From an uncultured Gammaproteobacteria bacterium (GTDB lineage: Bacteria > Patescibacteriota > Microgenomatia > Levybacterales > UBA12049): DNA of 64,000 nt. Position numbers and translations under genes: made by a program. The notes beneath the pieces are model-generated. The model did no database searches and was not told where the DNA came from. It saw nothing but the letters and a program-made list of their open reading frames with translations. This document shows positions 62 through 60,422 of the stretch, one piece after another (within the stretch, counting starts at the first letter, position 1; each line of letters opens with the position of its first letter). The stretch lies in assembly GCA_964408825.1 (NCBI GenBank), contig CAYPAU010000001.1:76789-140788 (forward strand). The letters are read 5' to 3'.

Positions 62-796
62 ATGAAAGGTGTAATTTTAGCAGGCGGTCTTGCAACCAGA
101 CTTAGACCGCTCACTTCGATTACGAATAAGCATCTTCTTCCTGTTTATAACAAGCCAATGATTTTTTATCCTCTTGAGGCTATGGTAAAAGCCGGAATAA
201 AGGAAGTTTTGATAAATAGCTCTCCGGATCATGCTGGACATTTTGCGAATCTGCTTAAATCGGGGGATGACTTTGGGCTCAAGATTTATTATGGCGTTCA
301 GCAAAATGCAAAAGGAATTGCGGACGGCATTTCTTATGCAAGAGAATTTGCTAAAGATGAAAAAATTTTAGTAATTCTTGGAGACAACATTTTTAATACC
401 AACCTTAAACCAACTATAGAAAAATTTGAGAAGAGAGAAAAGGGAGCAGTTATTTATGGAGTAAAGATGTCAACCGGTTCTCAGCAATATGGAGTGATAG
501 AGATCGATGATGACGGAACTGTTTTATCTATTGAGGAAAAGCCACGGAGTCCTAAGTCTGACATAGTGCAAACCGGGATATATATGTATGATGATAGAGT
601 CTTTGATTTTATTGGAAGACTAAAGCCCTCCGCAAGAGATGAACTTGAGGTTACAGATCTCAACAATATTTATCTTGAGGAAGGAACTCTTCAATGTGAG
701 CTTTTGGATTGGTGGGTTGATGCAGGAACATCCTATGACGAACTTTTAAGAGCCAATAATCTAGTTGCCGAGAAAGTCAAAAATGGCGAGTTATAA
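62..796 (+). CDS. rmlA: Glucose-1-phosphate thymidylyltransferase-like sugar nucleotidyltransferase (short RmlA-type)
   Basis: N-terminal motif GGLATRLRPLT and the sugar-nucleotidyltransferase fold; sits next to rmlB. At 244 aa it is shorter than canonical RmlA. Confidence 0.65.
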   Translation: MKGVILAGGLATRLRPLTSITNKHLLPVYNKPMIFYPLEAMVKAGIKEVLINSSPDHAGHFANLLKSGDDFGLKIYYGVQQNAKGIADGISYAREFAKDEKILVILGDNIFNTNLKPTIEKFEKREKGAVIYGVKMSTGSQQYGVIEIDDDGTVLSIEEKPRSPKSDIVQTGIYMYDDRVFDFIGRLKPSARDELEVTDLNNIYLEEGTLQCELLDWWVDAGTSYDELLRANNLVAEKVKNGEL

Positions 797-801
797 ATTT
801 T

Positions 802-1272
802 ATGATTGTTTGTGAATTTGAAAACGGCGGAAAAGGAAATCTTCGACATGTCACAGTTGGCGCAATTGCAATTAATAATAAACAAGAGGTGCTTCTTATA
901 AAACGTGCCAGCTCCCACAGATTTGGAACATATACCATTCCGGGAGGATTCTTAGATCGAGATGAAAACACTGAGAAGGCAACCCTAAGGGAATTAAAAG
1001 AGGAGACAGGATATAACGGTGAAATTGTTAATCTGTTCCGTGTTAACGACAATCCCAAAAGACCCAAGGAAGATCGACAAAATGTTGATTTTTTATATAT
1101 CGTAAAAATAACAAGTGGTAAACCAATGCTAAATAAAGAAGTATCTGAGGTTGGTTGGTTTGACGAAACCAGTCTTCCATCTGAGGAAGAATTTGCATTT
1201 GATCATAGAGACTCGATTCTTAGGTATTTTGATCATCTAGAGCAACCAATCAGTCTTCCAATATTAGGATAA
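802..1272 (+). CDS. Nudix hydrolase, likely a sugar-nucleotide hydrolase (Gmm/NudD-like by context)
   Basis: Nudix box GGFLDRDENTEKATLRELKEETGY; located inside the sugar-nucleotide operon. Confidence 0.75.
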   Translation: MIVCEFENGGKGNLRHVTVGAIAINNKQEVLLIKRASSHRFGTYTIPGGFLDRDENTEKATLRELKEETGYNGEIVNLFRVNDNPKRPKEDRQNVDFLYIVKITSGKPMLNKEVSEVGWFDETSLPSEEEFAFDHRDSILRYFDHLEQPISLPILG

Positions 1273-1273
1273 T

Positions 1274-2284
1274 ATGAAAATTTTGGTGACCGGAGGAGCC
1301 GGTTTTATCGGTTCGAATTTTATAATTTACTGGATGAAGAATCATCCGGATGATTTTGTAGTTAATTTTGATGCCCTAACATATGCAGGAAATTTAGAAA
1401 ATTTAAAGGAAGTTCAAAATAATTCGAATTACTCGTTTGTAAAGGGAAATATAGTTCAATCAAATGAGGTTGCATCTGTGATTGAGGGGGTAGATATCGT
1501 TGTTCACTTTGCAGCAGAAAGCCATGTAGATCGATCTATCTTAGGTCCTCAGCCTTTTATATTAAGCAATGTAGTTGGAACTCAGGTGTTGCTGGATGTT
1601 GCCCGTCAGAACAATGTTAAGCGCTTTCATCATATATCCACAGATGAAGTATTTGGAAGCCTTAATCTTGGTGATTCGAAGAAATTTAATGAACGAACAA
1701 GATATGATCCCAGAAGTCCGTATTCTGCAAGTAAAGCCGGATCAGATCATATTGTGAGAGCATATTACCATACGTATAATTTTCCTATCACTATTACTAA
1801 TTGTTCTAATAACTTTGGGCCCTATCAGTTCCCGGAAAAATTAATCCCTCTTGCTATAACAAATTTACTCGAAAATAAAAAGGTTCCGATATACGGGGAC
1901 GGACTTTATGTAAGAGACTGGCTTTACGTTGAGGACCACTGTCGCGCAATTGAAGTTGTTTTACAAAAAGGAAAGATAGGAGAAACTTATTGCGTAGGTG
2001 GATTAACAGAGGATATTAATAATCTAGAGGTCGTGAAAAAAATAATAAAGATTTTGGGCAAGGATGAAAGCTATATAGAGTTCGTAAAGGATAGACAGGG
2101 GCACGACAGAAGGTATGCTGTTGACTGGTCGAAAATAAAAAATGAACTTGGCTGGTTTCCTCTTCATAGCTTTGACGAGTGGCTTGAGAAAACAATAGGA
2201 TGGTATAAAGAAAATAAAAAATGGTGGCAGGATGTAAAAAACGGAGAATACAAGAATTATTATAAAAAGCAATATGGATCATGA
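1274..2284 (+). CDS. rmlB: dTDP-glucose 4,6-dehydratase
   Basis: MKILVTGGAGFIGSNF Rossmann N-terminus, YSASKAGSDH catalytic motif, 336 aa. Confidence 0.85.
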   Translation: MKILVTGGAGFIGSNFIIYWMKNHPDDFVVNFDALTYAGNLENLKEVQNNSNYSFVKGNIVQSNEVASVIEGVDIVVHFAAESHVDRSILGPQPFILSNVVGTQVLLDVARQNNVKRFHHISTDEVFGSLNLGDSKKFNERTRYDPRSPYSASKAGSDHIVRAYYHTYNFPITITNCSNNFGPYQFPEKLIPLAITNLLENKKVPIYGDGLYVRDWLYVEDHCRAIEVVLQKGKIGETYCVGGLTEDINNLEVVKKIIKILGKDESYIEFVKDRQGHDRRYAVDWSKIKNELGWFPLHSFDEWLEKTIGWYKENKKWWQDVKNGEYKNYYKKQYGS

Positions 2285-2396: not shown

Positions 2397-3215
2397 ATGA
2401 AGATAATAGGAACAGGACTTACGGGACTTGTGGGGTCCCGAGTTGCAGAGCTTTTAAAAGATAAATATGAATTTGTAAATTTTAGCAGAAGAAGTGGTAA
2501 TGACATAACTGACAAGAATGAAGTTTTTAATTTTCTAGGATCATCAGACGCGCCCCTCGTAATTCATCTTGCAGCAAAAACAGACGTAGATGATTGCGAA
2601 AAGGATAAAGAAGAAGATAGTAAAATATTGGGATATAAAGATATTAAGGAACAGGAAGAGGAATTTAAAATAAAGAAAACGGCTTGGGCAGTTAATGTTT
2701 TAGGAACAAAAAATATTGTTGACGCATGCAGAAAAACTAAGAAAAAATTAATATACATATCAACCGACTTTGTCTTCGACGGGACAAAAGATTTTTACAA
2801 AGAGGAAGATACCCCAAACCCGATTAATTGGTATGGAAAAACAAAATATGAAGGGGAGAAACTGGTTTCTTCTTCGGAAATTCCGAATGCGATAATAAGA
2901 ATTTCGTATCCCTATAGAGCAAAATTTCCCAAAAAAGATTTTATAAGAGTTTTAATTGATCTTTTGGCAAATGGTAAATCTTTAAGAATGGTAAGCGATC
3001 AGATTATTACACCGACATTTATAGACGATCTTGATTTTGTTTTCGACTATTTTCTTAAAAACCAAACGGAAGGTGTTTTTCACGCATGCGGAGGGGACTC
3101 TCTGACTCCTTTTGAAATAGTAAATAAAATTGCTGAAGTTTTTGGTTTTAATAAAAATTTAATATCAAAAACAATAAGGAAAGAATTTTTCAGAGGAAGA
3201 GCAGAACGCCCTTAA
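2397..3215 (+). CDS. rmlD: dTDP-4-dehydrorhamnose reductase-like protein (RmlD). The annotated ORF ends at an in-frame TAA; the same frame stays open to 3308 (see findings).
   Basis: RmlD-like N-terminus MKIIGTGLTGLVGSRV and an acidic low-complexity insertion. The in-frame continuation ends in an ATGA overlap with ugd. Confidence 0.6.
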   Translation: MKIIGTGLTGLVGSRVAELLKDKYEFVNFSRRSGNDITDKNEVFNFLGSSDAPLVIHLAAKTDVDDCEKDKEEDSKILGYKDIKEQEEEFKIKKTAWAVNVLGTKNIVDACRKTKKKLIYISTDFVFDGTKDFYKEEDTPNPINWYGKTKYEGEKLVSSSEIPNAIIRISYPYRAKFPKKDFIRVLIDLLANGKSLRMVSDQIITPTFIDDLDFVFDYFLKNQTEGVFHACGGDSLTPFEIVNKIAEVFGFNKNLISKTIRKEFFRGRAERP

Positions 3216-3304
3216 CATCTTCTTATGAAAAATGATAAAATTAACAAATTGGTAATAAAATTCAAAAGACTTGAAGAAGGCATTTTAGAAACGAGAAAAC
3301 AAAT

Positions 3305-4594
3305 ATGACAATAACTTTCATCGGCCACGGATATGTTGGACTTGTTACAGCATCCATCTTTGCAGATTTAGGCAATAAGGTTTGGGTGATTGGCAGGGAC
3401 CCTAAGAAAATAAAAGATCTTAAAAAAGGAAAATCTCCATTCTTTGAACCCGGACTTGAAGAACTTGTAAAACGAAATATTAGAGCAAAGAGGCTTTTTT
3501 TTACGCTTGATTATAAGCCTTCAGTTTCGGATTCAGACATAGTTTTCATAGCCGTTGGAACTCCACCGAATAAAACAGGCGATGCAGAACTTCTTGGAGT
3601 TTTCGCCGTTGCGGAAAATATTGGAAAAAATCTGAAAGGTTATACGGTTATTGCTACAAAAAGCACGGTTCCTCCCGGCACAAATAAAAGAATAAAACAA
3701 TTGATAGATGAAGTTAAGCCTCATGAAGCAACATTCGACATCGCATCGGTTCCTGAGTTTCTTCGTGAAGGAACAGCGATTCAAGACACCTTGGCGCCCG
3801 ACAGGATTGTTATAGGAACCGAAAATAAAAGAGCCCAGAATTTGCTTATTGAACTTCATAAGCCTATCGACAGACAGTTTGTTCTAACAAATCTTGAGAC
3901 AGCGGAGCTCATTAAATATGCATCAAATTCATTTTTGGCCACTAAAATTTCATTTGCAAATGCGATAGCAAAATTATCAGAACTAGTCGGAGCAGATGGT
4001 ATTGCCGTTATTGAAGGACTAGGTCTGGACAAAAGGATTGGCAATGAATTTCTTGCTCCAGGTCCTGGCTACGGCGGAAGCTGTTTCCCAAAAGACGTAA
4101 AAGCCCTAATTGCAATCGCCAAGAATTATGATTATAGCTTTGCTTTACTTGATGAGGTAGAAAAAATTAATGGACAGGCAAAGCGCGATATCGTTAGAAA
4201 AGCAAGAAAATTGCTGACAGATTTAAACAAAAAGACCATTGGAATATTGGGTCTTTCCTTCAAACCCAATACCGATGACATGCGGGATGCTCAGTCTGTC
4301 GATATTATAGAAATGTTAAAGCAAGAAAGAGCAAGTATTAAAGCTTTTGACCCTCAAGCTATGGCAAATGCAAAAAGAATCATAACTAACGTTGAATTTT
4401 GCGATAACGTTTACGATGTAGCCAAGGGATCAGATGCACTTATTATTATTACAGATTGGAACGAATTTAAAGAACTTGATTTTAAAAAAATAAAAAAACT
4501 CATGAAAAACCTTATTATTATCGATGGAAGGAATATTTATAATCCTGAAAAAATGAGGGAATTAGGTTTCACCTATGTTGGAATTGGAAGATGA
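3305..4594 (+). CDS. ugd: UDP-glucose 6-dehydrogenase
   Basis: ITFIGHGYVGLVTA NAD-binding N-terminus, GGSCFPKD catalytic Cys motif, 429 aa. Confidence 0.85.
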   Translation: MTITFIGHGYVGLVTASIFADLGNKVWVIGRDPKKIKDLKKGKSPFFEPGLEELVKRNIRAKRLFFTLDYKPSVSDSDIVFIAVGTPPNKTGDAELLGVFAVAENIGKNLKGYTVIATKSTVPPGTNKRIKQLIDEVKPHEATFDIASVPEFLREGTAIQDTLAPDRIVIGTENKRAQNLLIELHKPIDRQFVLTNLETAELIKYASNSFLATKISFANAIAKLSELVGADGIAVIEGLGLDKRIGNEFLAPGPGYGGSCFPKDVKALIAIAKNYDYSFALLDEVEKINGQAKRDIVRKARKLLTDLNKKTIGILGLSFKPNTDDMRDAQSVDIIEMLKQERASIKAFDPQAMANAKRIITNVEFCDNVYDVAKGSDALIIITDWNEFKELDFKKIKKLMKNLIIIDGRNIYNPEKMRELGFTYVGIGR

Positions 4595-4595
4595 G

Positions 4596-4651
4596 CCTCC
4601 TTTGTTAAAACTTCGGATGGATCATGTCCCCGAAGCTTTAGTAATTTTTAT
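4596..4651 (+). repeat. Conserved intergenic motif, copy 2 (ugd-rmd spacer)
   Basis: CCTCctTTGTTAAAACTTCGGATGGATCATGTCCCCGAAGCTTtAGTAATTTTTA, with a CTTCGG/CCGAAG stem. Confidence 0.6.
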
Positions 4652-4702
4652 GAGTAGAACATTTTGGAAAATAAAAAAAAATACGAGAGAGCGCGAAGGG
4701 GC

Positions 4703-5662
4703 ATGAAGAAAGTTTTGATAACGGGAGTCTCTGGTTTTGCAGGCAGTTTCTTAGCAGAAAGGCTTGTTTCAGAAAATAATGTAGATGTATATGGCGTATA
4801 TTTAAATGAAAAAACTCTTTCTAACTTAAGTTCAATAAGAGATAGAGTAAAACTTCTAAGGCTTGATCTGTCCGATGGAAAAGGAGTTTTAAAGCTCATT
4901 GGGGAGGAAAAACCAGATTATATATATCATTTGGCAGCCTTACCTTCTTCCGGGGAAAGCTTTGAGATGCCCTACCACACTTTTCAAAGTAATGTACAGC
5001 CTGAAATAAATATTCTTGAAGCTTTGCGTAAATTAGATTTAAATTCTACTAGAGTGATGATTGTCTCATCCGCTGAAATCTATGGGTTGGTGGCCAAAAA
5101 AGATTTGCCAATTGATGAAAATACCCCCTTTAATCCGACTAACCCTTATGCAGTATCAAAACTTGCTCAGGATTTTTTAGGTCTTCAATATTTTTTGTCA
5201 CATAAACTTCAGATTATCAGAGTTCGTCCCTTCAATCATATTGGTCCAAGACAATCTTCTGATTTTGTTGTTTCAGCTTTTGCAAAAAAAATTGCAGAAA
5301 TAGAAAAAGGAAAAAGAGAGCCAATTTTACCGGTGGGTAATTTAGAAAGTTCAAGAGATTTTACAGACGTTAGGGATATGGTAAGAGCCTACCATCTTGC
5401 TATAGAAAAAGGGGAAGTTGGAGATGTATACAATATCGGATCAGGAAAATCTTACAAGATTTCTGAAATTCTTAGGAGATTATTATTGCTTTCAAGAGTA
5501 AATATCAAAATTGAAACTGATAAAATTCTCCTAAGGCCTTCAGATAATCCCATTCTTCTATGCGATAAAACGAAGTTCTCAAATCTTACAGGTTGGGAGT
5601 TAAGGATTCCAATAGAAAAGACACTGAAAGATACGCTTGAGTATTGGAGAAATATAATTTAA
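4703..5662 (+). CDS. NAD-dependent epimerase/dehydratase, GDP-4-dehydro-6-deoxy-D-mannose reductase (Rmd)-like. The ORF-track start is 4664; MKKVLITG at 4703 is the likelier start.
   Basis: GVSGFAGSFLAERL Rossmann motif, YAVSKLAQD, FNHIGPRQS; adjacent to gmd. Confidence 0.55.
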   Translation: MKKVLITGVSGFAGSFLAERLVSENNVDVYGVYLNEKTLSNLSSIRDRVKLLRLDLSDGKGVLKLIGEEKPDYIYHLAALPSSGESFEMPYHTFQSNVQPEINILEALRKLDLNSTRVMIVSSAEIYGLVAKKDLPIDENTPFNPTNPYAVSKLAQDFLGLQYFLSHKLQIIRVRPFNHIGPRQSSDFVVSAFAKKIAEIEKGKREPILPVGNLESSRDFTDVRDMVRAYHLAIEKGEVGDVYNIGSGKSYKISEILRRLLLLSRVNIKIETDKILLRPSDNPILLCDKTKFSNLTGWELRIPIEKTLKDTLEYWRNII

Positions 5663-5674
5663 AATCTATAAAAC

Positions 5675-6649
5675 ATGGCAAAAAAAGCTTTGATTACCGG
5701 AATTACTGGGCAAGATGGTTCATATCTTGCATAACTATTATTGTCCAAGGGCTATAGGGTTTTTGGGCTAACGAGACGGACAAGCACGATAAATTTTGAG
5801 CGAATTAAAAATATCGAAGATAAGATAACTTTAATTCAAGGAGATCTTCTCGATCAAAGCTCATTGTCGTCTGCTATTTTGGAATCAGAACCAGATGAAG
5901 TTTACAATCTCGCTGCTCAATCATTTGTTAAAACCTCCTGGAATCAGCCTGTTTTAACCGGTGAATTTACAGCATTGGGAGTAACAAGGCTTCTTGAAGC
6001 AATTCGTGCAGTTAATCCTAAGATTAAATTTTATCAGGCTTCTTCTTCTGAAATGTTTGGTAAGGTTACCGAAACTCCCCAGAAAGAAACTACAAGATTT
6101 CATCCAAGAAGTCCATACGGAGTTGCAAAGGTTTATGGACATTATATTACATTAAACTATAGAGAAAGTTATGAAATGTTTGCATGTTCTGGGATTTTCT
6201 TTAATCACGAGTCTCCAAGACGAGGACTCGAGTTTGTAACAAGAAAAATAAGTCATGCAGTTGCCCGAATCAGTCTTGGAAAACAAAAGATACTTGAGCT
6301 TGGCTCTCTTGAGCCAAAAAGAGATTGGGGATATGCAGGAGATTATGTTGAAGCAATGTGGCTTATGCTGCAGCAAGAAAAGGCGGATGATTTCGTAATA
6401 GCAACCGGAGAAAACCACAGCGTCAAAGAATTTGTTGAGCTTGCTTTTGCCTTCGTTAAGATAAAAGATTGGCAAAAGCATGTTAAGTCAGATGTAAATG
6501 AACATTTAAGACCGGCAGAAGTGGATTATCTTATAGGCGATGCAAGTAAGGCAAGAAAAGTTCTGGGATGGAAACCTGAGACAGGCTTTAAAGAATTAGT
6601 TGAGCTTATGGTAGAAGCTGATATTGAAAGGGAAAAGGGCACTAAGTGA
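5675..6649 (+). pseudogene. gmd: GDP-mannose 4,6-dehydratase interrupted by an in-frame TAA at 5732-5734 (codon 20). The ORF track only sees the TTG-initiated remnant 5741..6649.
   Basis: The frame from ATG 5675 reads [31 protein letters not shown]. Canonical GMD reads ...GSYLAEFLLEKGY..., so a conserved GAA (Glu) is TAA here. Downstream GMD motifs are present. Confidence 0.7.
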
Positions 6650-7617
6650 TAATGAAGACAGCTCTTGTGGCCGGAGGAGCAGGTTTTATGGGCTCTCATC
6701 TTTGCAAAAAACTCCTCGATAAAAATTTCAGGGTAATATGCTTAGATAATTTAGTAACCGGAAATGATGGTGTCATTAAAAAATTTCTTTCCGCAAAAAA
6801 TTTTAAATTTTTAAAAGCAAATGTTAGTGATAGCAAAGATCTAAAAAACTTAAATGATGTAAGTTTTATATTTCATTTGGCCTCTCCCGCATCTCCGAGT
6901 CAAAAAAGTCCGAGAAGTTATCTTGCCTTCCCCATAGAGACTCTTCTAGCAAACTCATTGGGCACTTATAACTTACTCAATATTGCAAAAAATTCAAATG
7001 CAAAATTTCTTTATGCGTCTTCGTCTGAAGTTTATGGAGATCCAAAGGTTTCTCCTCAGGGAGAAGATTATTTTGGAAATGTAAATCCAGTTGGAATTCG
7101 TTCGGTCTACGATGAAGGAAAAAGATTTGGTGAGGCAATCACTATGGCATATGTTAGAAAATTCAACACAGACGCAAGAATAATAAGAATATTTAATACT
7201 TTTGGTCCAAACATGAGGAATGATGATGGACGGGTCATCTCAAACTTTATAAATCAGGCGATTAGAAACGAACCTCTTACAGTTTATGGGGACGGAAAAC
7301 AAACCAGAAGTGTATGCTATATAGATGATCTTATTGAGGGGTTACTGCTTTCAATGTTTTCCGATAAAACAAAGGGAGAAGTTATTAATCTTGGAAATTC
7401 TGAAGAAAAAACAATTATTGAGCTCGCAAACCTAATAAAAAAATTGACCAATTCTAATTCCGAGATTATTTTTGAGCCACTTCCCGATGATGATCCTAAG
7501 CAAAGAAAGCCTAACATAGAGAAAGCAAAAAGACTTCTTTCTTGGAAACCAAAAGTGGATATTGACCAAGGACTTTTAGAAACAATAGAATATTTTGAGA
7601 AGATAAAAAATAGCTGA
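6646..7617 (+). CDS. UDP-glucuronate decarboxylase (UDP-xylose synthase, UXS/ArnA-C-like)
   Basis: [14 protein letters not shown], the [15 protein letters not shown] motif, and a short-chain dehydrogenase fold; follows ugd. The GTG/ATG start overlaps the gmd stop. Confidence 0.75.
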
Positions 7618-7697
7618 ATGGCTAAATAGCTAGACGGTTAAGATTTGTACACTTTGAAAACTATTTGACCGTTCAGCCATTTTAGCTATTCTGTTTT
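7617..7697. promoter_or_regulatory. Long imperfect inverted repeat in the UXS-GT2 spacer (possible terminator or attenuator)
   Basis: GAATGGCTAAATAGCTAGACGGTTAAG ... TTGACCGTTCAGCCATTTTAGCTATTC. Confidence 0.3.
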
Positions 7698-8831
7698 ATG
7701 AAGGTAGCTATTATAAACCCCACTTATAACGAAAAAGGTAATATTGACCGCCTTATCCCAACTCTTGAGAACGAAATTTTTCCAAAAATAAAAAATCACG
7801 ATATGCACATTTTAGTTGCAGATGACAATTCTCCAGATGGAACAGAAAAAGAAGTAAGAGAACTTATGGGGAAATGGAAAAACATAGATATCTCCTCGGG
7901 CGAGAAGCTTGGCTTGGGTGCGGCATATATAAGAGGAATGACCTACGCAATTGAGAAGATGGGGGCAGATGTTGTTTTTGAAATGGATGCTGATCTTCAG
8001 CATGATCCCGAAAAAATACCCGAATTTCTCAAAAAGATTGACGATGGATACGACATGGTTATCGGCAATAGATACAGTGATGGAGGATCGATTCCCAAAA
8101 ATTGGCCAATTTTGAGAAAAATATTTTCAGTTGTAGCAAATCTCTTTGTAAGAACCATATTTATGAAATTTTCAATCCATGATTGGACAGGAGGATACAG
8201 GGCTCTTAAAAAAGAAGTATTTCTAAGAGAAAAAGAAGAATTAACAAATTATAAAGGTTACATTTTTCAGATATCTTTTCTTCACAAAGCCGTAAGAGAC
8301 GGATTTAAAATAGGTGAGGTTCCTTTCCACTTTTCAGATAGAAATCTTGGTAAATCAAAAATTGCTCCCTTAGGATACATTATTGAGGTATTCAAATTTG
8401 TAATTTCAACCAGAATGAAAGAAATACTCCTTGGAAAATTTGGTAAATTTCTGGTAGTTGGGGGTACGGGTTTTATAATTAATGCAGTAGTATTAAGAGT
8501 TCTGGTTGAGATTTTCGGATGGGATGCTTCACTAGCTAATTTAGTTGGTGCGGCTTTGGCAATATTTTCTAATTATAATTTTAATAATCTCTGGACATTT
8601 GGGGAGAATAAGGCATCTACTATTTCAAGTTACTTTATCAAGATGGCACAATTTTATCTAACTTCCTCGTTTGGCGTTATCTTTATCCAAACAGGAACAA
8701 TATTCCTGGGACAGCGCCTAATCGGAGAAAATTATTACTTTATATATTTTTTAATAGGCACCTTCTTCCTTCTTATTTGGAACTTTACGGTATATAATAA
8801 AATCATCTGGCGCAAGAAGGCTCCTAAATGA
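7698..8831 (+). CDS. GT2 polyprenyl-phosphate glycosyltransferase (DPM1/ArnC-like) fused to a C-terminal GtrA-like membrane domain
   Basis: ADDNSPDGTE and EMDADLQHDP motifs; the C-terminal GtrA-type transmembrane region reads FLVVGGTGFIINAVVLRVL...SNYNFNNLWTF. Confidence 0.8.
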   Translation: MKVAIINPTYNEKGNIDRLIPTLENEIFPKIKNHDMHILVADDNSPDGTEKEVRELMGKWKNIDISSGEKLGLGAAYIRGMTYAIEKMGADVVFEMDADLQHDPEKIPEFLKKIDDGYDMVIGNRYSDGGSIPKNWPILRKIFSVVANLFVRTIFMKFSIHDWTGGYRALKKEVFLREKEELTNYKGYIFQISFLHKAVRDGFKIGEVPFHFSDRNLGKSKIAPLGYIIEVFKFVISTRMKEILLGKFGKFLVVGGTGFIINAVVLRVLVEIFGWDASLANLVGAALAIFSNYNFNNLWTFGENKASTISSYFIKMAQFYLTSSFGVIFIQTGTIFLGQRLIGENYYFIYFLIGTFFLLIWNFTVYNKIIWRKKAPK

Positions 8832-10426
8832 AAGTTTCCCTAAAGAAGTTTAAAGCTTTTGTTTTAAATCCCAATTTAGTGATTATTGTTATTCTTGTTT
8901 TAGCCTCCTTTTTGAGACTATACAGAATACAGGATTACATGACCTTCCTTGGAGATGAGGGAAGAGATGTACTGGTTGTCTATAATATTCTCCATGGGAA
9001 TTTAACACTCCTTGGCCCGGCTGCTTCGGTAGGAGGTTTTTTCCTTGGTCCTATTTATTACTATTTTATGGTCCCCTTTCTGTGGATGTTTAATTACAAT
9101 CCTGTCGGACCGGCTATTATGGTAGCACTTTTTGGGGTCGCTACGGTTTATCTACTTTATAGATTTGCATCCGAGCTTTTCAATAAAAGAATAGGTCTTA
9201 TTGCAGCACTTTTATACTCAATTTCTCCTATCGTGATAGCATATTCTCGTTCTTCCTGGAATCCAAATCTAATGCCGTTTTTCTCACTTTCTTCCCTGTA
9301 TGTTTTATATAGAGCTGTAAAAATTAACAGCTGGAAGCTTTTTCTACTTTGCGGATTTCTTTTGGGAATTTCAATGCAGCTTCATTATCTTGCATTTTTC
9401 TTAGGTGCTGTTGTGGCTTCTTATATTTTAATAGTCGATCTTTTAGGAAAGTTTTATGCAGGGAAAAAGAGCTTGGATTTTGTTAAACAATACTTTCTGG
9501 TTTTCATAGGTTTTCTAATTGGTTTGTCTCCTTTTCTTGCATTTGAAGCAAGGCATGGTTTTCAAAATATAACAAGTATTTACGGTTTTGTATTTAAATC
9601 GGACGAGACCGGAGTCGGTCTTTCTTTCTTCTCAAGTGTTTATGATGTTTTCTTTAGGCTATTTGCGAGGCTTGTCGCAAATTTTCCGGCGTATGATCAA
9701 ATTGCGGCAGGACAACACTCAAATATAGCGCTATGGTATGTCTTGGCGTTTCTCCTGGGACTTAGCTCGCTTTCTATTTTGGTTTATAAATTTATTAAAA
9801 ATTTTCCTTATTCTAAAGAAAAGTACAAAAAAAACTATGGTGAATTCCTGAAAATTTACTTGCTATTTGCATGGCTTGGCGTTGGCATAATTCTCTTTGG
9901 GTTTTATAGAAAACCGATTTATGAGTATTATTTTGGTTTTATGTTTGTTTTACCCTTTATTCTTTCGGCCCACGCCTTAGATTTTCTTAATTCAAAAAAG
10001 ATTCTATTAAAAATAACTTCAGTTATAGCTTTTATCGCACTTCTTGCTGTTAATCTTTACGGCATGCCATTTAAATATGAGCCGAACAGACAATTAAAGC
10101 AGGTCAAAACCATTGCAGAGTTTGTTTTGAATAAAACAGAAAGTAGGCCGTTTAACTTTGCCTTGATTACCGGCGGGAATTCGGATCATGCCTACCGCTA
10201 TTTTTTCAAGCTAAGAAATCAGGATCCGGTAGCAATTGAGCCTCCGGTAACTGATCCCGCGAGAAAAACGGTTACTGACCAACTTTTGGTGGTTTGTGAA
10301 GGACCATGTCAACCTCTAGGAAACTCTCTTTGGGAAGTGGCAGGGTTTGGAAGAGCGGAAATCGCAGGCGAGTGGAACATCATTGTCGTAAAAGTATATA
10401 AACTGGTCCACTATAAGGAAAAGTAG
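8828..10426 (+). CDS. ArnT/PMT-family (GT-C, GT39/GT83-like) polytopic membrane glycosyltransferase
   Basis: 532 aa with many transmembrane helices and an N-terminal loop with a DE motif (FLGDEGRDVLV); directly downstream of the ArnC-like GT2. Confidence 0.6.
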   Translation: MKVSLKKFKAFVLNPNLVIIVILVLASFLRLYRIQDYMTFLGDEGRDVLVVYNILHGNLTLLGPAASVGGFFLGPIYYYFMVPFLWMFNYNPVGPAIMVALFGVATVYLLYRFASELFNKRIGLIAALLYSISPIVIAYSRSSWNPNLMPFFSLSSLYVLYRAVKINSWKLFLLCGFLLGISMQLHYLAFFLGAVVASYILIVDLLGKFYAGKKSLDFVKQYFLVFIGFLIGLSPFLAFEARHGFQNITSIYGFVFKSDETGVGLSFFSSVYDVFFRLFARLVANFPAYDQIAAGQHSNIALWYVLAFLLGLSSLSILVYKFIKNFPYSKEKYKKNYGEFLKIYLLFAWLGVGIILFGFYRKPIYEYYFGFMFVLPFILSAHALDFLNSKKILLKITSVIAFIALLAVNLYGMPFKYEPNRQLKQVKTIAEFVLNKTESRPFNFALITGGNSDHAYRYFFKLRNQDPVAIEPPVTDPARKTVTDQLLVVCEGPCQPLGNSLWEVAGFGRAEIAGEWNIIVVKVYKLVHYKEK

Positions 10427-27658: not shown

Positions 27659-27729
27659 TGCTGGGTCATCTAACGGTAGGATAGCGGACTCTGAATCCGT
27701 TCATCTTGGTTCAAATCCAAGCCCAGCAG
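27659..27729 (+). tRNA. tRNA-Gln (anticodon CUG)
   Basis: Hand-folded: acceptor TGCTGGG/CCCAGCA with U1-A72 and G73, D-loop with GG, anticodon loop CUCUGAA, T-arm CTTGG-TTCAAAT-CCAAG. No encoded CCA. Confidence 0.8.
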
Positions 27730-27730
27730 C

Positions 27731-28109
27731 TATCCTTCGCCAAGGCTACGGAATAGCATGCAATTACGAAGCTGAGAGCGAAGTATTACATGCACTATTG
27801 TTATGTATTGTTGAGTTCAAAATCTCATATTTTTTATTTTGGTTCAACAAATAACTTGAAAAGCAGATTAAAATCGCATAACAATGGGAGTATTAAATCA
27901 ACTAGACCACATAGGCCTTGGGATTTAATTTGGTACGCCGGATTCAAAACCGAAAAAGAAGCAAGAGATTTTGAGCTTTATCTAAAATCTGGTTCAGGAA
28001 GATCGTTTGCCTACAAAAGATTAATTTCCGTAACGTTGAAGAAGGATTTCTCTGATGGGCGAAGAAGTAGTCCGAAGTCTAAGACGTAGGATACCAAGCC
28101 CAGCAGCTA
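27731..28109 (+). mobile_element. About 360-bp GIY-YIG cassette inserted at the tRNA-Gln 3' end. The 16-bp direct repeat CCAAGCCCAGCAGCTA sits at 27717-27732 and 28094-28109; imperfect inverted ends are TATCCTTCGCC and GACGTAGGATA.
   Basis: Exact 16-nt duplication of the tRNA 3' end 362 bp downstream. The second copy has no upstream T-arm, so it is not a tRNA. Confidence 0.5.
27790..28089 (+). CDS. GIY-YIG nuclease family protein (YhbQ/UPF0213-like, 99 aa)
   Basis: YCYVLLSSKSHIFYFGSTNNLKSRLKSHN is a GIY-YIG motif, followed by the family's downstream Arg/Glu helix. Confidence 0.75.
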   Translation: MHYCYVLLSSKSHIFYFGSTNNLKSRLKSHNNGSIKSTRPHRPWDLIWYAGFKTEKEARDFELYLKSGSGRSFAYKRLISVTLKKDFSDGRRSSPKSKT

Positions 28110-37099: not shown

Positions 37100-38146
37100 T
37101 TATTGCATTCCGAGGTAAGAGAGGCGGTTGTATTTAGCGACTCTTTCTCCTCTGTCCATTCCTCCGAATTTTACGAAGTCCGCATCAACCCACAGCGCAA
37201 AATCTACGATCCAGTCATCTATGGTTTCCTCTCCTCTATGGGACACAATAATTTTAAGTTTGGCTTTTTTGGCAATTCTAACTGCTTCAAGGGTTCCCGA
37301 GATAGTTCCGTTTTGATTGGGTTTTATTACTGCCGCATTTATCGCTTTAAAATCTATGGCTTTTTGAAGCCTTTTTGGATTTGTAGCTGTTAAATCATCC
37401 CCAACTATCATTATTTTTTCGGAAAACCTTGAGCAGAAAGAAATCCACTCCTCCCAATCTTCATCGGGAAAAGGGTCCTCTATGGATTTTATATTATAAT
37501 TTGAGACAAGCATGTCGAAATTTACCACTTGTCCTTCCCCAAAATTTGCTGCAGCATCCACGGCAATTTCTTTTTTGGGAAAAACTTTTTTGATAGTATC
37601 AAGTGCGATAATATTATCAAAACCTACGGGAGAAAATCCTCCTTCTGCCCCTACGGTACTTTGCAAATTGTTTTTTTCAAGATAGGCTCTTAACATTTTA
37701 AAGTCTAAAATGGCCTCTCTTAAAGAATCCTCAATTATCATAAATTCTTGCATAGAGATATTGGGATTTCCGTGTTTACCTCCTTCAAAAAGAAGAAGCA
37801 TGAGTCGCGGGAATTTTAAATTTTGATGTTTAGAAACTTTGGATTGAGCTTTCCAAAATGCTCCCGAGAGAGCAAGCGAAGCATTTCCTCCTAAGCCCAA
37901 CTCATCGAGCCTTTTGTCAAGTTCTTCCTGTGTCCATCTTTTATTTAATATAATATTTTTTATTTTTCTGATTTGAGATATTGCTTCGTCTGCGGTTACA
38001 ATTCTTGCTTCATATTTTCCCGTAGAGATTCCGGCCGGTACGATAAGTTCTTCGGAGGTTCCATTTTCAAGTTCGATTTTAACTTTTATTGTCTCATTGC
38101 CAAGCGATGCTAAGGTTTTGCCTTCTGTTAAGTTTTTGATCCTCAT
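37100..38146 (-). CDS. eno: Enolase (short form, 348 aa)
   Basis: C-terminal IVGDDLTATNPKRL...IKPNQNGTISGTLEAV...SHRGEETIDDWIVDFALW matches enolase catalytic-domain motifs. Confidence 0.75.
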   Translation of the reverse strand: MRIKNLTEGKTLASLGNETIKVKIELENGTSEELIVPAGISTGKYEARIVTADEAISQIRKIKNIILNKRWTQEELDKRLDELGLGGNASLALSGAFWKAQSKVSKHQNLKFPRLMLLLFEGGKHGNPNISMQEFMIIEDSLREAILDFKMLRAYLEKNNLQSTVGAEGGFSPVGFDNIIALDTIKKVFPKKEIAVDAAANFGEGQVVNFDMLVSNYNIKSIEDPFPDEDWEEWISFCSRFSEKIMIVGDDLTATNPKRLQKAIDFKAINAAVIKPNQNGTISGTLEAVRIAKKAKLKIIVSHRGEETIDDWIVDFALWVDADFVKFGGMDRGERVAKYNRLSYLGMQ

Positions 38147-45672: not shown

Positions 45673-45745
45673 GGCCCCATCGTCTAGTGGCCTAGGACGG
45701 CAGGTTCTCATCCTGCAAACCCGGATTCGACTTCCGGTGGGGTCA
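45673..45745 (+). tRNA. tRNA-Glu (anticodon CUC)
   Basis: Hand-folded: acceptor GGCCCCA/TGGGGTC, D-arm TCGTCTAGTGGCCTAGGAC typical of tRNA-Glu, anticodon loop UUCUCAU, T-arm CCGGA-TTCGACT-TCCGG, discriminator A. Confidence 0.8.
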
Positions 45746-46126
45746 CTTCGGCAAGCTCAGTGCAAGCACTTCTATGCTAAAGGCTTCAGAGTGGTTCATC
45801 TATATGCTTCTTTGCGATAATAAAACTTTCTACACGGGGATTACTGATAATTTTATCGAGAGGTTTATAAAACATATAAATAAACAGAATATATCTACAA
45901 AAAAGTTTTTAAAAATTAAATTTGTTTATGCAGAAAAATATCGAGACAAATATCAAGCGGCAAGGAGAGAAAAACAGCTCAAAGGTTGGTCGCATGCAAA
46001 GAAGCAGTTAATGATTGACGGAAAACTTGGAATTAATACTTGTACTGAGTTTGTTGAAGATCTCATTTCGAAGCTGAATCTTTGAGTTTATTCCGAGCCT
46101 GCCGAGGAAACTTCCGGTGGGGTCAC
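45746..46126 (+). mobile_element. About 360-bp GIY-YIG cassette at the tRNA-Glu 3' end. The 17-bp direct repeat ACTTCCGGTGGGGTCAC sits at 45730-45746 and 46110-46126; the 13-bp inverted ends CTTCGGCAAGCTC and GAGCCTGCCGAGG match at 11 of 13 positions.
   Basis: Exact 17-nt duplication of the tRNA 3' end 380 bp downstream; inverted repeats sit immediately inside the duplications. Confidence 0.5.
45774..46085 (+). CDS. GIY-YIG nuclease family protein (YhbQ/UPF0213-like, 103 aa)
   Basis: WFIYMLLCDNKTFYTGITDNFIERFIKH (compare E. coli YhbQ [28 protein letters not shown]) and ARREKQLKGWSHAKKQL. Confidence 0.75.
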   Translation: MLKASEWFIYMLLCDNKTFYTGITDNFIERFIKHINKQNISTKKFLKIKFVYAEKYRDKYQAARREKQLKGWSHAKKQLMIDGKLGINTCTEFVEDLISKLNL

Positions 46127-48278: not shown

Positions 48279-49034
48279 GTGAACAACCCTTTTCTTTCTG
48301 TCGTCGTCCCCTCATATAATGAGCTTGGTAATCTTCATAAGGGAGTTCTGGATAAAGTTGATCATTATCTTTCTAGGCAAAAATACACATGGGAAGTAAT
48401 AGTGGTTGATGACGGCTCAACAGATGGAAGTGTAGAGTTTGTAGAAAATTTTGTTAAAGAAAATGAGGGATTTAGGGTGGTGAAAAACGGCCATACCGGA
48501 AAAGCAGGTGCCGTAACGCGCGGTGTTTTAGATGCAAAAGGAGAGATCATACTTTTTACAGACATGGATCAGGCAACTCCCATAGAAGAAATAGAAAAAT
48601 TTTTTCCTTCTTTCGAAAGAAACTTCGATATAGTTATTGGTTCGCGAAATTCCGAAAGAAAAGGAGCCCCATGGACAAGACTTGTTATGGCAAGGAGCAT
48701 GATGATACTCCGCACGCTAATAGTAGGAGTTTACGGAATTTCAGACACGCAGTGCGGGTTTAAAGCTTTTAGGAATGATGTCGCAAAGAAATTATTTAAA
48801 AAAATAAACGATATAAATAAAGGATTCAAACAAGTTACCGGATCACATGTGACTGCCGGATTTGATGTAGAACTTCTGTATCTTGCCCAGAAGTTGGGTT
48901 ACAGGATAAAAGAGGTACCTGTTAACTGGCTTTATGTAGAAACAAGAAGAGTAAGCCCTCTAAAAGATTCCATAGATGGCTTTTTCGATCTTTTCAAAAT
49001 AAAATTTAATTCTTTAAAAGGGACTTACGACTAA
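48279..49034 (+). CDS. GT2 glycosyltransferase (polyprenyl-phosphate sugar synthase-like, DPM1/GtrB type)
   Basis: LSVVVPSYNELGNL and VVDDGSTDGS. The GTG start lies about 7 nt after a perfect TATAAT -10, so the transcript is probably leaderless. Confidence 0.8.
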   Translation: MNNPFLSVVVPSYNELGNLHKGVLDKVDHYLSRQKYTWEVIVVDDGSTDGSVEFVENFVKENEGFRVVKNGHTGKAGAVTRGVLDAKGEIILFTDMDQATPIEEIEKFFPSFERNFDIVIGSRNSERKGAPWTRLVMARSMMILRTLIVGVYGISDTQCGFKAFRNDVAKKLFKKINDINKGFKQVTGSHVTAGFDVELLYLAQKLGYRIKEVPVNWLYVETRRVSPLKDSIDGFFDLFKIKFNSLKGTYD

Positions 49035-50225
49035 ATGTCGAAATTTAAATTTACCATTTTTCATTTACCATTTATCATTTTTTGTTATCTAATAGTTATC
49101 ATTGCTCTTTTTCTTTATTCTTTTACACAGATTGATTTAAGTTTGACTTTGACAGAGATTTCATGGTGGCAGGGGATTCAAAAATTTTTTCAGAACATCG
49201 GTTACTTTAACAGACCTCTTTCTGCGTTTTTTTATTTGACAATAACCACATTTCTGTTTGTTTTATATATTTTATTTTTGATACTTGCCAAAAGAAATAA
49301 ACTTTCATACAAAGCAGTATGGGGATTAGTTATTTTTACATCAGTGCTTCTTACCTTTTCCTATAATGCCTTTTCTTACGACCTTTTTAATTATATGTTT
49401 GATGCAAGAATCATAACCAATTATCAGCAGAACCCTTATCTTCATAAAGCCCTGGACTATCCGGGTGATCCCATGCTTTCTTTCATGCACTGGACACACA
49501 GGACTTATCCCTATGGTCCTTCATGGCTTATTCTTACGGTACCGCTTTCATTTATCGGAGGAAATTTTTTCCTTTTTACTTTTTTCATGTTCAAAGCCAT
49601 ATCCTCTTTAAGCTATTTGGGAACCGCATATTTTATTTCAAAAATATTAAAAAAAGTTAATACCGAGAATGCACTGCTTGGTCTTGTATTTTTTGCATTC
49701 AACCCCTTGGTTATAATTGAGGGCTTAGTTAGTGCTCACAATGACATGGCCATGATTTTTTTCGCGGTTTTTTCGTTGTATCTACTTTTAAATAGCCAAA
49801 AAATATTTTCGTTCTTGGGATTCCTATTTTCAATAGGAATAAAATTTGCAACCGTTTTTATGATACCGGCGTATATCTATTTTTTTATAAAGAAGAAAAT
49901 AGATAAGAGATTTTTTAAAATTTTATTTTTCTCGATGTTTATTCCTCTCATTTTTGTAACAATAAGAACAAATTATCAACCATGGTATCTTCTTTATATT
50001 CTTCCTTTTGCAAGTTTGGCCCCTCAAAAAAAATACACAATGGGAGCAGGAATTATTTTAGCTTTTTTCTCACTTATTCAATACATTCCCTTTCTTTATA
50101 CAGGGAATTGGGATAAGCCAATCCCACAGATTCTGTTTTATATCACAGTATCAGGCTTCGTAGTTTATCTTTTGTATTCTATGTTCGGAAGTCTAAATAT
50201 TTTAGGCAGGAAAATGCTAAAATAA
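49035..50225 (+). CDS. Polytopic membrane protein, possible GT-C glycosyltransferase (DUF2029/GT87-like?)
   Basis: 396 aa with about 10 transmembrane helices, inside the glycosylation cluster. Confidence 0.35.
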   Translation: MSKFKFTIFHLPFIIFCYLIVIIALFLYSFTQIDLSLTLTEISWWQGIQKFFQNIGYFNRPLSAFFYLTITTFLFVLYILFLILAKRNKLSYKAVWGLVIFTSVLLTFSYNAFSYDLFNYMFDARIITNYQQNPYLHKALDYPGDPMLSFMHWTHRTYPYGPSWLILTVPLSFIGGNFFLFTFFMFKAISSLSYLGTAYFISKILKKVNTENALLGLVFFAFNPLVIIEGLVSAHNDMAMIFFAVFSLYLLLNSQKIFSFLGFLFSIGIKFATVFMIPAYIYFFIKKKIDKRFFKILFFSMFIPLIFVTIRTNYQPWYLLYILPFASLAPQKKYTMGAGIILAFFSLIQYIPFLYTGNWDKPIPQILFYITVSGFVVYLLYSMFGSLNILGRKMLK

Positions 50226-50229
50226 TCTT

Positions 50230-51744
50230 ATGTTTGCTTTGCAAAAACTCTTTGTAAAATATAGATTTGAAATCCTTGCCTTTGCAGCACTTACAGCTTT
50301 GTATTTTTACCTTCGTTTATACAACGTAATGTCCCTTCCCATATTTACGGATGAGGCAATTTATGTAAGATGGTCACAAATTGCAAGATATGATCCTTCA
50401 TGGAGATTCATATCTTTAACGGATGGGAAACAACCTCTTTTCGTTTGGCTTGCCTTAAACGTTATGAGACTAGTTGAAGACCCTCTTTTTGCTTCAAGGC
50501 TTGTCTCAGTCGCAGCAGGATTTTTTACAATGGTAGGCTTGTTTTTCTTAGGGAGGGAAATCTTCAAAAACCGATTCGTAGGTTTAATTTCCTCCTTTCT
50601 GTATATACTGTATCCCTTTGCCTTAGTTTATGACCGCATGGCACTTTACGAGAGCTTGGTGGGTGTTTTTACTGTCTGGGCTCTTTATCTTGAAGTGCTT
50701 TTAATAAGAAGAATCCGCCTTGATGTCGCTTTGATATTAAGTATGGTTCTTGGCGCCGGAGTACTTACTAAGTCCTCCGCCTTTTTTAATATTTATCTTA
50801 TTCCCACCACGCTTCTTTTGTTCGATTTCAAAAATAAGAAATCAATGCTTTTTAGATGGGCTTTGTTAGTTATTGTTTCTACAGTTCTTGCCTATGGATA
50901 TTATTCGGTCTTAAGACTTTCCCCCTTTTTTCACATAGTTAATGAAAAAAACTCCATATTTGTATATCCTTTCAAGGAGTGGATTACTCATCCTTTCACG
51001 TATTTGAGAAGTAATTCAATGGGCCTTTTAGATTGGTTTTATAGCTATATGGGTTTGCCGGCAATTCTTTTAATAATCCTATCGTTTTTCATAAATACTA
51101 AATATTTGAAAGAAAAAATTCTTTTTTCCAGTTGGTTTGTGATTCCCTTTGTAGCTCTTATTTTTTTTGGTAAAACCCTTTACCCAAGATTTATCTTTTT
51201 TATGACGCTTTCGCTTTTGCCTCTGGTAGCTTTTTCGCTCTTTGAAATTTTTAATAAAATTAAAAAGAGATACTTAGCAATCCTTATCCTTGTAGTTTTC
51301 CTAATTCCTTTTTTAAGAACAGACTTTTATATTATTTCAGACTTTGCAAAAGCTCCTATAGCAAAGCCAGATATTCACCAGTACATCAATGACTGGCCGG
51401 CAGGAGGAGGCATTAAAGAAGCGGTTGATTATTTAGGGGAGCAAGCTAAGGAAAGAAAAATCCATGCGGCTTCCCTTGGCACTTTTGGTTCTCTTCCTAC
51501 TTATTCAATAGAGATTTATTTAGGAGACAATAATAATGTAGATAGAGGAGGTATTTTCCCCGTGCCCTCAGAAATACCAAAAGAACTATTGGAAAAGGCA
51601 AAGAAGATACCAGTTTTTCTTCTTGTTTCAAATCAGAAGGAATTTGAGAATAATATAAAAACCTGGCCTCTTAAGCTTATTTTTGAAATAAAAAAGGGCG
51701 AGGGAGATTCATTCACACGGCTTTATAGAGTAAAAGCTTCTTAA
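50230..51744 (+). CDS. ArnT/PMT-family GT-C membrane glycosyltransferase
   Basis: N-terminal loop with a DE motif (IFTDEAIYVRW); polytopic; 504 aa. Confidence 0.6.
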   Translation: MFALQKLFVKYRFEILAFAALTALYFYLRLYNVMSLPIFTDEAIYVRWSQIARYDPSWRFISLTDGKQPLFVWLALNVMRLVEDPLFASRLVSVAAGFFTMVGLFFLGREIFKNRFVGLISSFLYILYPFALVYDRMALYESLVGVFTVWALYLEVLLIRRIRLDVALILSMVLGAGVLTKSSAFFNIYLIPTTLLLFDFKNKKSMLFRWALLVIVSTVLAYGYYSVLRLSPFFHIVNEKNSIFVYPFKEWITHPFTYLRSNSMGLLDWFYSYMGLPAILLIILSFFINTKYLKEKILFSSWFVIPFVALIFFGKTLYPRFIFFMTLSLLPLVAFSLFEIFNKIKKRYLAILILVVFLIPFLRTDFYIISDFAKAPIAKPDIHQYINDWPAGGGIKEAVDYLGEQAKERKIHAASLGTFGSLPTYSIEIYLGDNNNVDRGGIFPVPSEIPKELLEKAKKIPVFLLVSNQKEFENNIKTWPLKLIFEIKKGEGDSFTRLYRVKAS

Positions 51745-51745
51745 T

Positions 51746-54136: not shown

Positions 54137-55643
54137 ATTTATTTTTATATTTCTTTCCGTTTTATTAGTGGTTCCAGGTGTCGTAGGACTTTTACATTCA
54201 GGTTTTCCCTTAACCGATGACGGCAACTGGATGGTTATAAGGTTTTCCGCATTTTATGAGGCTTTTAGGAACGGACAATTTCCCGTAAGATTTCTTCCGC
54301 GTTTAAATAATGGATTCGGTTATCCGGTTTCTAATTTTCTTTATCCTCTTTTTATGTATATAGGCATCCCGATTCATCTTGCGGGCTTTAGCTTCGTAGA
54401 TACCATTAAGGTAATCATGGGGGGCAGTTTAATTTTTTCTTCTTTATTCACATTTTTGTGGCTTAGAAAGATATTTGGATCAATTGCATCTTTGGTCGGA
54501 GCGGTCTCCTACTCATTATTTCCGTATCATTTATATGATTTATATAAAAGAGGATCTGTTGGAGAGCTTCTTGCTCTTTCTATTGTCCCGTTTATTCTTT
54601 GGGGGATAGAAAAGAGAAACTTGGCTATTTCCTCTTTAGGATACGGTCTTCTGATCCTCTCACATAACACTTTGGCAATTTTATTTATTCCTACTATTTT
54701 TATATATCAACTCTTAAGGTATAAATTTTCCCTAAAGTCCTTAATGCCCCTTCTTCTTGGTCTTTCTCTTTCTGCCTTTTTTTCAGTGCCCGCTCTATAC
54801 GACAGGCAATATACAATTTTTAGTCAAGTTAAAATATCAGATTATTCCATGTATTTCGTTAACTTCGACAATTTGAATTTATACGGCTTAATATTCTTTA
54901 CATCGATCGCTGCCTCTTTCTATTTATTAATTAAAAACAAAGGAAAAACTAATATTTATTTTTTGATACTTTCACTGTTAGCCCTATTAATAACAATTCC
55001 TAAAGCTGTTCCAGTCTGGGAATTTACATTTTTGCAAAATTATATTCAGTTCCCATTTAGATTCGTCTCAATTGCTGTTTTATCGTCCTCTTTTCTTCTC
55101 GCGTCATTTTTGGATTTATTTAAGGTAAGAAGATTAATCTTTGCCTTTATAATCTTAATTATAATTTATTTATCCAGCCTAAACTTTATTTATCCTAAAG
55201 TTTTTCAATACCATCCGGATACCTTTTACTCTACCAACCAAGACACAACTACAGTCAAAAACGAATATATGCCAAAATGGGTCAAGAAAATACCAACTAG
55301 AAGATACGAAAGCAAGGTCGAGATTATCAATGGAGAAGGTGAGATTAAAGATTTTAAAGATTCAGGCAATAGGGTTTCATTTATATATGTATCTAAAGAG
55401 CCGTCCTTACTTGCGCTTAATACTATATATTTCCCAGGCTGGAAGCTAAGTATTGATAAAAAAAATTCTCAAATTTTATACAATAATGAAGGAGGTCTTA
55501 TTCAATTTAAGGTAGACCGCGGTAAGCATTTTATTGAAGCAAAATTCGGAGAAACCGGAGTAAGACTTTTAAGCGATCTTGTATCGCTGGGGAGTCTTTT
55601 TGTGCTTTTGTACTTGTCTTTAAAAAGAAAATATTTAATATGA
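54108..55643 (+). CDS. Uncharacterised polytopic GT-C-like membrane protein (paralogue A)
   Basis: FPLTDDGNWMVIRF...GQFPVRFLPRLNNGFGYPVSNFLYPLFMY; resembles the next gene. Confidence 0.4.
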   Translation: MSGILKKNFKFIFIFLSVLLVVPGVVGLLHSGFPLTDDGNWMVIRFSAFYEAFRNGQFPVRFLPRLNNGFGYPVSNFLYPLFMYIGIPIHLAGFSFVDTIKVIMGGSLIFSSLFTFLWLRKIFGSIASLVGAVSYSLFPYHLYDLYKRGSVGELLALSIVPFILWGIEKRNLAISSLGYGLLILSHNTLAILFIPTIFIYQLLRYKFSLKSLMPLLLGLSLSAFFSVPALYDRQYTIFSQVKISDYSMYFVNFDNLNLYGLIFFTSIAASFYLLIKNKGKTNIYFLILSLLALLITIPKAVPVWEFTFLQNYIQFPFRFVSIAVLSSSFLLASFLDLFKVRRLIFAFIILIIIYLSSLNFIYPKVFQYHPDTFYSTNQDTTTVKNEYMPKWVKKIPTRRYESKVEIINGEGEIKDFKDSGNRVSFIYVSKEPSLLALNTIYFPGWKLSIDKKNSQILYNNEGGLIQFKVDRGKHFIEAKFGETGVRLLSDLVSLGSLFVLLYLSLKRKYLI

Positions 55644-60413: not shown

Positions 60414-60422
60414 AATTATTTT

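Follow-up and report, generated by a model that had tools for sequence, protein, structure and literature searches.

A surface-glycan operon in a Candidatus Levybacteria (Patescibacteria) genome carries two premature in-frame TAA codons, one at the start of gmd (GDP-mannose 4,6-dehydratase) and one near the end of an RmlD-like reductase gene. On balance we favour the reading that both are genuine and very recent loss-of-function alleles, i.e. nascent pseudogenes, because they lie in one functionally coherent glycan operon and the rest of the window (the whole 64,000-nt stretch of DNA analysed here) is clean. Error in the deposited metagenome-assembled genome (MAG), leaky termination, and an altered genetic code were weighed as alternatives.

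The window is densely coding, with 36.7% G+C. Its near relatives are all Candidatus Levybacteria or Patescibacteria MAGs. The first 10.4 kb show full synteny with relatives such as L001, and the same operon layout is found in about eighty Levybacteria relatives. Many genome records with a Levybacteria-type operon (L009, L015, L018, L021, and others, with GMD identities of 80-86%) are titled ‘uncultured Gammaproteobacteria bacterium’; on these TPA assemblies the titles are probably placeholder or wrong taxonomy labels. The features of the operon are listed in Table 1.

Table 1. Genes of the surface-glycan operon and sites of its two interruptions, in window positions.
Feature	Position	Strand	Evidence and state
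RmlA-like nucleotidyltransferase	62-796	+	TIGR01207 rmlA 242 bits, below cutoff; intact
NUDIX	802-1272	+	Synteny with L001; intact
RmlB dTDP-glucose 4,6-dehydratase	1274-2284	+	PDB 6bi4 390 bits; intact
RmlD-like NDP-4-keto-6-deoxyhexose reductase	2397-3308	+	303 codons, interrupted at codon 273
Second premature TAA	3213-3215	+	RmlD-like codon 273, 2.5 kb upstream of gmd; context CCT TAA CAT, +4 base C
UDP-glucose 6-dehydrogenase (UGD)	3305-4594	+	Three UDPG_MGDP_dh domains, full length; TIGR03026 455 bits; intact
rmd-like GDP-6-deoxy-D-lyxo-4-hexulose reductase	4703-5662	+	ATG 4703; PDB 2pk3 251 bits, E 1.4e-73; 6x3b 167 bits; intact
gmd (GDP-mannose 4,6-dehydratase)	5675-6649	+	324 codons, interrupted at codon 20; TIGR01472 and PF16363 matches
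GxxGxxG NAD(P)-binding loop (G9 ITG12 QDG15)	5699-5719	+	Stranded upstream of the gmd stop
Premature TAA in gmd	5732-5734	+	Context GCA TAA CTA, +4 base C; replaces conserved Glu codon
Remnant gmd ORF from TTG	5741-6649	+	302 aa; P0001 in source record; without cofactor loop
UDP-glucuronate decarboxylase (UXS)-like	6652-7617	+	PDB 4gll/2b69 308 bits, E 5e-91; intact
GT2-GtrA polyprenyl-phosphate glycosyltransferase	7698-8831	+	Pfam; intact
PMT_2/ArnT-like transferase	8828-10426	+	Pfam; intact

As reconstructed from these genes, the operon would make three activated sugars. A dTDP-6-deoxyhexose would come from the RmlA-like, RmlB, and RmlD-like enzymes, UDP-xylose from UGD and UXS, and GDP-D-rhamnose from GMD and Rmd. 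All three would be handed to the GT2-GtrA and PMT_2 transferases, which are the presumed users of activated sugars. A second large glycan and cell-envelope cluster (48279-64000) contains five GT2 genes, PMT_2, YfhO-like, a PTPS_related membrane glycosyltransferase-like gene, and a Polysacc_synt_3 flippase, all of them intact, and the organism invests heavily in surface glycans. Elsewhere in the window, an enolase-like gene on the minus strand (37100-38146, 348 aa) matches only positions 137-274 of 296 in Enolase_C and may be a divergent or reduced enolase, of a kind often found in Patescibacteria.

Several intergenic spacers in the operon have no counterpart in relatives. RmlB and UGD both end in TGA, and the spacers that begin right behind these stops (2285-2345 and 4595-4655) have a motif of about 55 nt in common (…GTTAAAACTYCGGATNGRTCATG…GAAGCTT…AGT); at both points the closest relatives show 4-nt gene overlaps. 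The motif has only these two copies in the window (zero expected by chance) and is absent from the loci of eighty-six relatives. It gave no Rfam match and no convincing common fold, and may be a small lineage-specific inserted element. The spacer between UXS and GT2-GtrA (7612-7700), where the genes overlap in relatives, holds a long imperfect inverted repeat (-27.2 kcal/mol, z = -4.3, with one of 200 shuffles as good). A scan of the operon for promoters and terminators returned forty-four promoter-like sites against about thirty-three expected, which is uninformative in such AT-rich DNA.

An earlier reading of the sequence alone (hereafter the sequence-only reading) had proposed that gmd is interrupted by an in-frame TAA at codon 20, and the profile searches confirmed this. 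The frame opens at the ATG, meets the TAA, and then continues without further stops to a TGA at 6647-6649. With an X placed at the stop, the 324-aa product scored 428.7 bits against TIGR01472 (gmd), for which the curated equivalog cutoff is 415. Residues 3-318 align with model positions 1-340 of 342, residue 3 falling on model position 1, and PF16363 is covered end to end (profile positions 1-332 of 332). Since both matches start at the N-terminus, the nineteen codons upstream of the stop are the genuine GMD N-terminus, as the sequence-only reading had held. The translation contains GITGQDG (residues 9-15), ASSSEMFG (S-x-E), and YGVAKVY (YxxxK), each identical in relatives; the roles of the GxxGxxG, Ser/Thr-x-Glu, and YxxxK residues are those established for E. 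coli GMD.

The two closest full-length GMD relatives (P0002 and P0003, found in metagenomes of groundwater and sediment and 89% identical) have the same first twenty-seven residues as the window except at the stop, where they carry Glu at their position 20. Across the fetched loci, this column is Glu in 82 of 85 orthologues (GAA in fifty-nine and GAG in twenty-three), so the residue is as conserved as had been claimed. A single G>T change (GAA>TAA) would suffice to produce the stop. The cofactor loop G9-x-x-G12-x-x-G15 is encoded wholly upstream of it, and the remnant frame does lack the GxxGxxG motif. This 302-aa remnant is already an NCBI protein record (P0001) on one 148,023-bp contig, and the gmd stop is therefore present in the deposited assembly. 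No second gmd was found within the 64-kb window.

The other premature TAA, at 3213-3215, leaves the RmlD-like gene with an ORF of only 272 aa, compared to 302-304 aa in relatives, where the gene overlaps both of its neighbours. The thirty codons past the TAA stay in frame, align with the C-termini of relatives, and end at the ancestral ATGA overlap with UGD. Global alignments of 2397-3308 to L001 (6836-7744) and to L087 (578-1489) cross the stop and continue to a common C-terminus, and the PF04321 (RmlD_sub_bind) match (190 bits, residues 85-296) spans it too. With 175.9 bits against TIGR01214, the product falls below the equivalog cutoff of 224.05 and belongs to PF04321 at the family level only; we therefore call it RmlD-like. 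No RmlC was seen, so its substrate and product are uncertain.

Among forty orthologues, the residue at the RmlD-like stop column is F in thirty-one, S in six, Y in two, and C in one. The codon is TTC in the closest relative (L087), and the closest relatives as a group have TTC or TCC. A single substitution in TTA, TAY, or TCA would give TAA, and the relatives do not fix the ancestral codon at 3213; for this reason, a common G:C>T:A signature for both stops was considered and dropped. The TAA also lies within a -35-like TTAACA that is separated by 18 nt from a TG-extended -10-like TAAAAT; the whole promoter-like match (3212-3241) stands about 64 nt before UGD begins. This match may be due to chance, as consensus matches are common in this AT-rich DNA.

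We scanned all six frames of the window for same-frame ORF pairs split by one stop and examined every candidate. Only two of the roughly sixty-five genes are interrupted, gmd and the RmlD-like gene, and the other 54 kb contain no broken genes or frameshifts. The pairs at 15020/15959, 48279/49035, 59493/60423, 18682/17725 (minus strand), 25641/25758, and 33782/33947 were rejected, as each consists of independent genes whose N-termini are normal and whose Pfam domains are complete. An apparent gap at 62131-64000 was considered as a decayed gene or RNA and likewise rejected; it is occupied by a long ORF that starts at ATG 62106 and runs off the window end, and Rfam returned nothing.

Comparison with the orthologous operons, which the sequence-only reading had called for, showed that neither stop is shared. 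The gmd stop was found in none of 85 orthologues and the RmlD-like stop in none of 40, and the gmd stop was also absent from 119 database homologues, all of them 322-334 aa long. Taking all orthologous operon gene copies in the loci of the eighty-six relatives, only 2 of 647 have an in-frame stop, which makes such stops rare.

The interrupted genes are otherwise well preserved. Codons 1-19 of gmd differ from L001 at ten nucleotides, of which ten are synonymous and none is nonsynonymous, and codons 21-324 have pN 0.067 and pS 0.70 (saturated). In the RmlD-like gene, the tail beyond the stop (pN 0.24, pS 0.50) and the body (pN 0.18, pS 0.60) are about equally constrained. For both genes pN/pS is as low as in intact relatives. 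We also counted private changes, defined as residues that depart from a column conserved at 95% or more, and scored each orthologue in the same way as background. Over the ten operon genes such changes number ten, a stop among them, where the background means add up to about 15.6, and no gene among the ten is an outlier, which argues that the operon has undergone no decay beyond the two stops. Long-standing decay is ruled out by the conserved-site and pN/pS tests. Both genes were under strong purifying selection until very recently, and the stops, if real, would be very young. Of the earlier suggestion that a GDP-D-rhamnose branch is decaying, the branch itself is supported by the Rmd match to 2pk3, while the decay is not, given that the other operon genes are intact and conserved sites show no excess of changes.

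The sequence-only reading had listed a real mutation, an error, and readthrough as the possible explanations. This is the correct set; the second TAA was missed in that reading. The foremost alternative to genuine alleles is that both TAAs are sequencing, assembly, or consensus artefacts in the deposited MAG and that both genes are intact and functional in the living organism, a possibility that we take seriously but doubt. Low coverage could be the cause, as could a consensus that is chimeric between strains at a strain-variable glycan locus, or G>T/C>A miscalls of the damage type. Apart from its stop each gene is without a flaw, and an error would equally leave no other decay behind. In gmd, the G>T transversion belongs to a class typical of oxidative-damage artefacts. 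The truncated protein P0001 is known from a single record, and its cluster has one member and no accession. A second assembly of the population was sought by exact-protein look-ups of P0001, UGD, and GT2-GtrA, which gave no match; a 36-nt pattern with N at the gmd stop site had no match in metagenome contigs, and a scan of genome contigs recovered only relatives at 86% identity or less.

Such artefacts do reach deposited MAGs, and two relatives look like cases of local quality problems. In the Lake Baikal MAG L050 (SIBS01000001.1, Baikal-deep-G183), three stops lie in frame within the first twenty-six codons of the RmlD-like orthologue (L050 6839-6920). Two of them are TGA and fall exactly on the GxxGxxG glycines, and the third is a TAA at a Glu/Val column; a G>T change could account for each, and together they are either a damage-type artefact or the mark of a decayed copy. 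TGA at Gly recalls code 25, in which Gracilibacteria and Absconditabacteria read UGA as Gly, but the TAA in L050 argues against that. In L044 (CAZBFH010000021.1), codon 101 of the UGD orthologue (~8018-8020) is an in-frame TAA, about twenty codons before a run of N (scaffold gap), which probably reflects local assembly quality.

What speaks against error in the window is the kind of change and its setting. Consensus substitution errors should be mostly missense or silent; in these genes, nonsense changes make up 4.9% of random single-base substitutions, or about one in twenty. Because nonsense is so rare among random errors, two error-derived stops should bring many odd residues with them. A random-error model gives about four conserved-site missense changes per nonsense change, and the operon shows no surplus of that kind, although the argument against error that follows from this is a weak one (p about 0.04-0.11). 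Two errors that are both nonsense and both in one operon would also be improbable at normal MAG accuracy. Elsewhere in the window no gene is broken or frameshifted. Judged by the background among relatives, two stops in one operon would not be expected from generic MAG noise, and the second TAA makes a pathway-level event somewhat likelier than a lone error.

If the two stops are genuine recent nonsense alleles, as we prefer, gmd translation would end after nineteen residues, and a product re-initiated from the TTG at 5741, having no GxxGxxG loop, is predicted to be inactive. Because there is no other gmd in the window, GDP-4-keto-6-deoxymannose and GDP-D-rhamnose would no longer be supplied, and Rmd would be left without its substrate. 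The RmlD-like protein would lose its last thirty residues, part of the substrate-binding domain, and translational coupling to UGD may also be weaker once the ATGA overlap is lost. Neither the UDP-xylose branch nor the transferases would be affected. The pair of hits could mean that selection favoured a changed or missing surface glycan (e.g. under pressure from phages or partner cells), or that after the first hit the second gene was under weaker selection. Phages of Patescibacteria are reported to have rmlB, rmlD, gmd, and rmd among their auxiliary genes (PMC12911398). These phage-borne genes place the sugars at the phage-host interface, which offers a plausible ecological frame for glycan remodelling.

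It is improbable, in our judgement, that the stops are real but leaky, with a little full-length GMD and RmlD-like enzyme made by low-level near-cognate readthrough or by suppression through a tRNA gene outside the window, such that the deoxyhexose branches are throttled and not abolished. Both premature stops read TAAC, compared to three of thirty-three normal TAA terminators in the window. The chance of both being TAAC is about 0.018, given the first-base composition of codons able to mutate to stops, but the pattern was noticed post hoc, and in gmd the +4C is just the first base of a conserved Leu codon. In bacteria +4U makes for strong termination and +4C goes with inefficient termination, but UAA, a stop that both RF1 and RF2 recognize, leaks least of all (PMC5289835). 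Disrupted Salmonella genes yield low but detectable protein (PMC9122581). The downstream frames are perfectly intact, but a very recent mutation would equally leave them so. Programmed recoding keeps the stop at the same site across relatives, and here the stops are conserved in no relative, which argues against conserved programmed readthrough as well as against reassignment.

The only tRNA genes in the window are tRNA-Gln(CTG) and tRNA-Glu(CTC), and no tRNA with a UUA anticodon or other suppressor tRNA was found in the 64 kb. Each of the two tRNA genes is followed directly by an ORF with a GIY-YIG nuclease domain, a pairing that thus occurs twice: tRNA-Gln (27659-27730) by an ORF of 99 aa (27790-28089) after a gap of about 60 nt, and tRNA-Glu (45673-45746) by one of 103 aa (45774-46085) after 28 nt. 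More speculatively, and very unlikely in our estimate, both TAA-C codons could be real and tolerated, the deoxyhexose branches being merely throttled or restored under some conditions, through low-level readthrough or suppression at a weak UAA-C context, or through complementation by phage-borne gmd and rmlD, which would make surface-glycan composition switchable.

Reassignment of TAA to an amino acid can be set aside, as the sequence-only reading had judged: there are two in-frame TAAs where relatives carry amino acids, and some other Patescibacteria lineages recode UGA, but TAA closes thirty-five of sixty-four genes in the window (TGA nineteen, TAG ten), the next gene start is often 1-6 nt away, gene ends at TAA agree with those of relatives (e.g. 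RmlA, NUDIX, and Rmd), relatives have different amino acids at the two sites (Glu at one, Phe/Ser/Tyr at the other), and none of the other conserved genes in the window has an in-frame TAA. With TAA as the commonest normal terminator, the genome appears to use the standard genetic code, and stop usage together with gene spacing rules out global recoding. The two stops have no bearing on open questions about the genetic code; each looks like an ordinary, very recent loss of a gene, or else like an error in the consensus.

Should both stops prove real, the genome would only just have lost the synthesis of GDP-D-rhamnose, and probably a dTDP-6-deoxyhexose too, and would have kept the UDP-xylose branch and the transferases. 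The remodelling of surface glycans would then be caught in progress in an ultra-small, episymbiotic bacterium, in which cell-surface sugars probably mediate attachment and phage recognition. There is also a caution for annotation. The 302-aa (gmd) and 272-aa (RmlD-like) ‘proteins’ are fragments and worth flagging, and metabolic reconstructions of this MAG should either credit it with no GMD activity or flag the site for read-level checking.

The interrupted genes can be set beside well-characterized enzymes. Like GMD (E. coli 1db3, P. aeruginosa 1rpn) acting with Rmd in the GDP-D-rhamnose pathway, the window's gmd product has full-length homology above the equivalog cutoff, an N-terminal GxxGxxG, and the SDR catalytic motifs S-x-E and YxxxK, and its gene directly follows an rmd-like one. 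It differs in the TAA at 5732-5734, which parts the cofactor loop from the catalytic body and occurs in no relative. Thus, gmd here is an orthologue that departs from the family only in lacking an uninterrupted reading frame, and it falls in the well-known class of nonsense-disrupted genes or MAG consensus errors. The RmlD-like protein shares PF04321 with RmlD (dTDP-4-dehydrorhamnose reductase; 3sc6, 1kbz), has RmlD enzymes as its best PDB matches, and has RmlA-like and RmlB neighbours; it differs from RmlD in an acidic insertion of 20-30 residues, in its sub-cutoff TIGR01214 score, and in the TAA at codon 273.

Code-25 Patescibacteria belong to the same superphylum and also have in-frame stops at conserved residues. 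In the window, by contrast, the codon is TAA and not TGA, TAA is the dominant terminator, and only two sites are affected, with different amino acids at each. Another comparison is with bacterial nonsense pseudogenes, including ‘pseudo-pseudogenes’ with low-level translation (PMC9122581). The features in common are a single in-frame stop in a conserved gene, here one that is intact in all functional orthologues, and a second hit in the same pathway. Unlike those pseudogenes, the genes here show no measurable relaxation of constraint and no further disabling changes, so that they are nascent pseudogenes at most.
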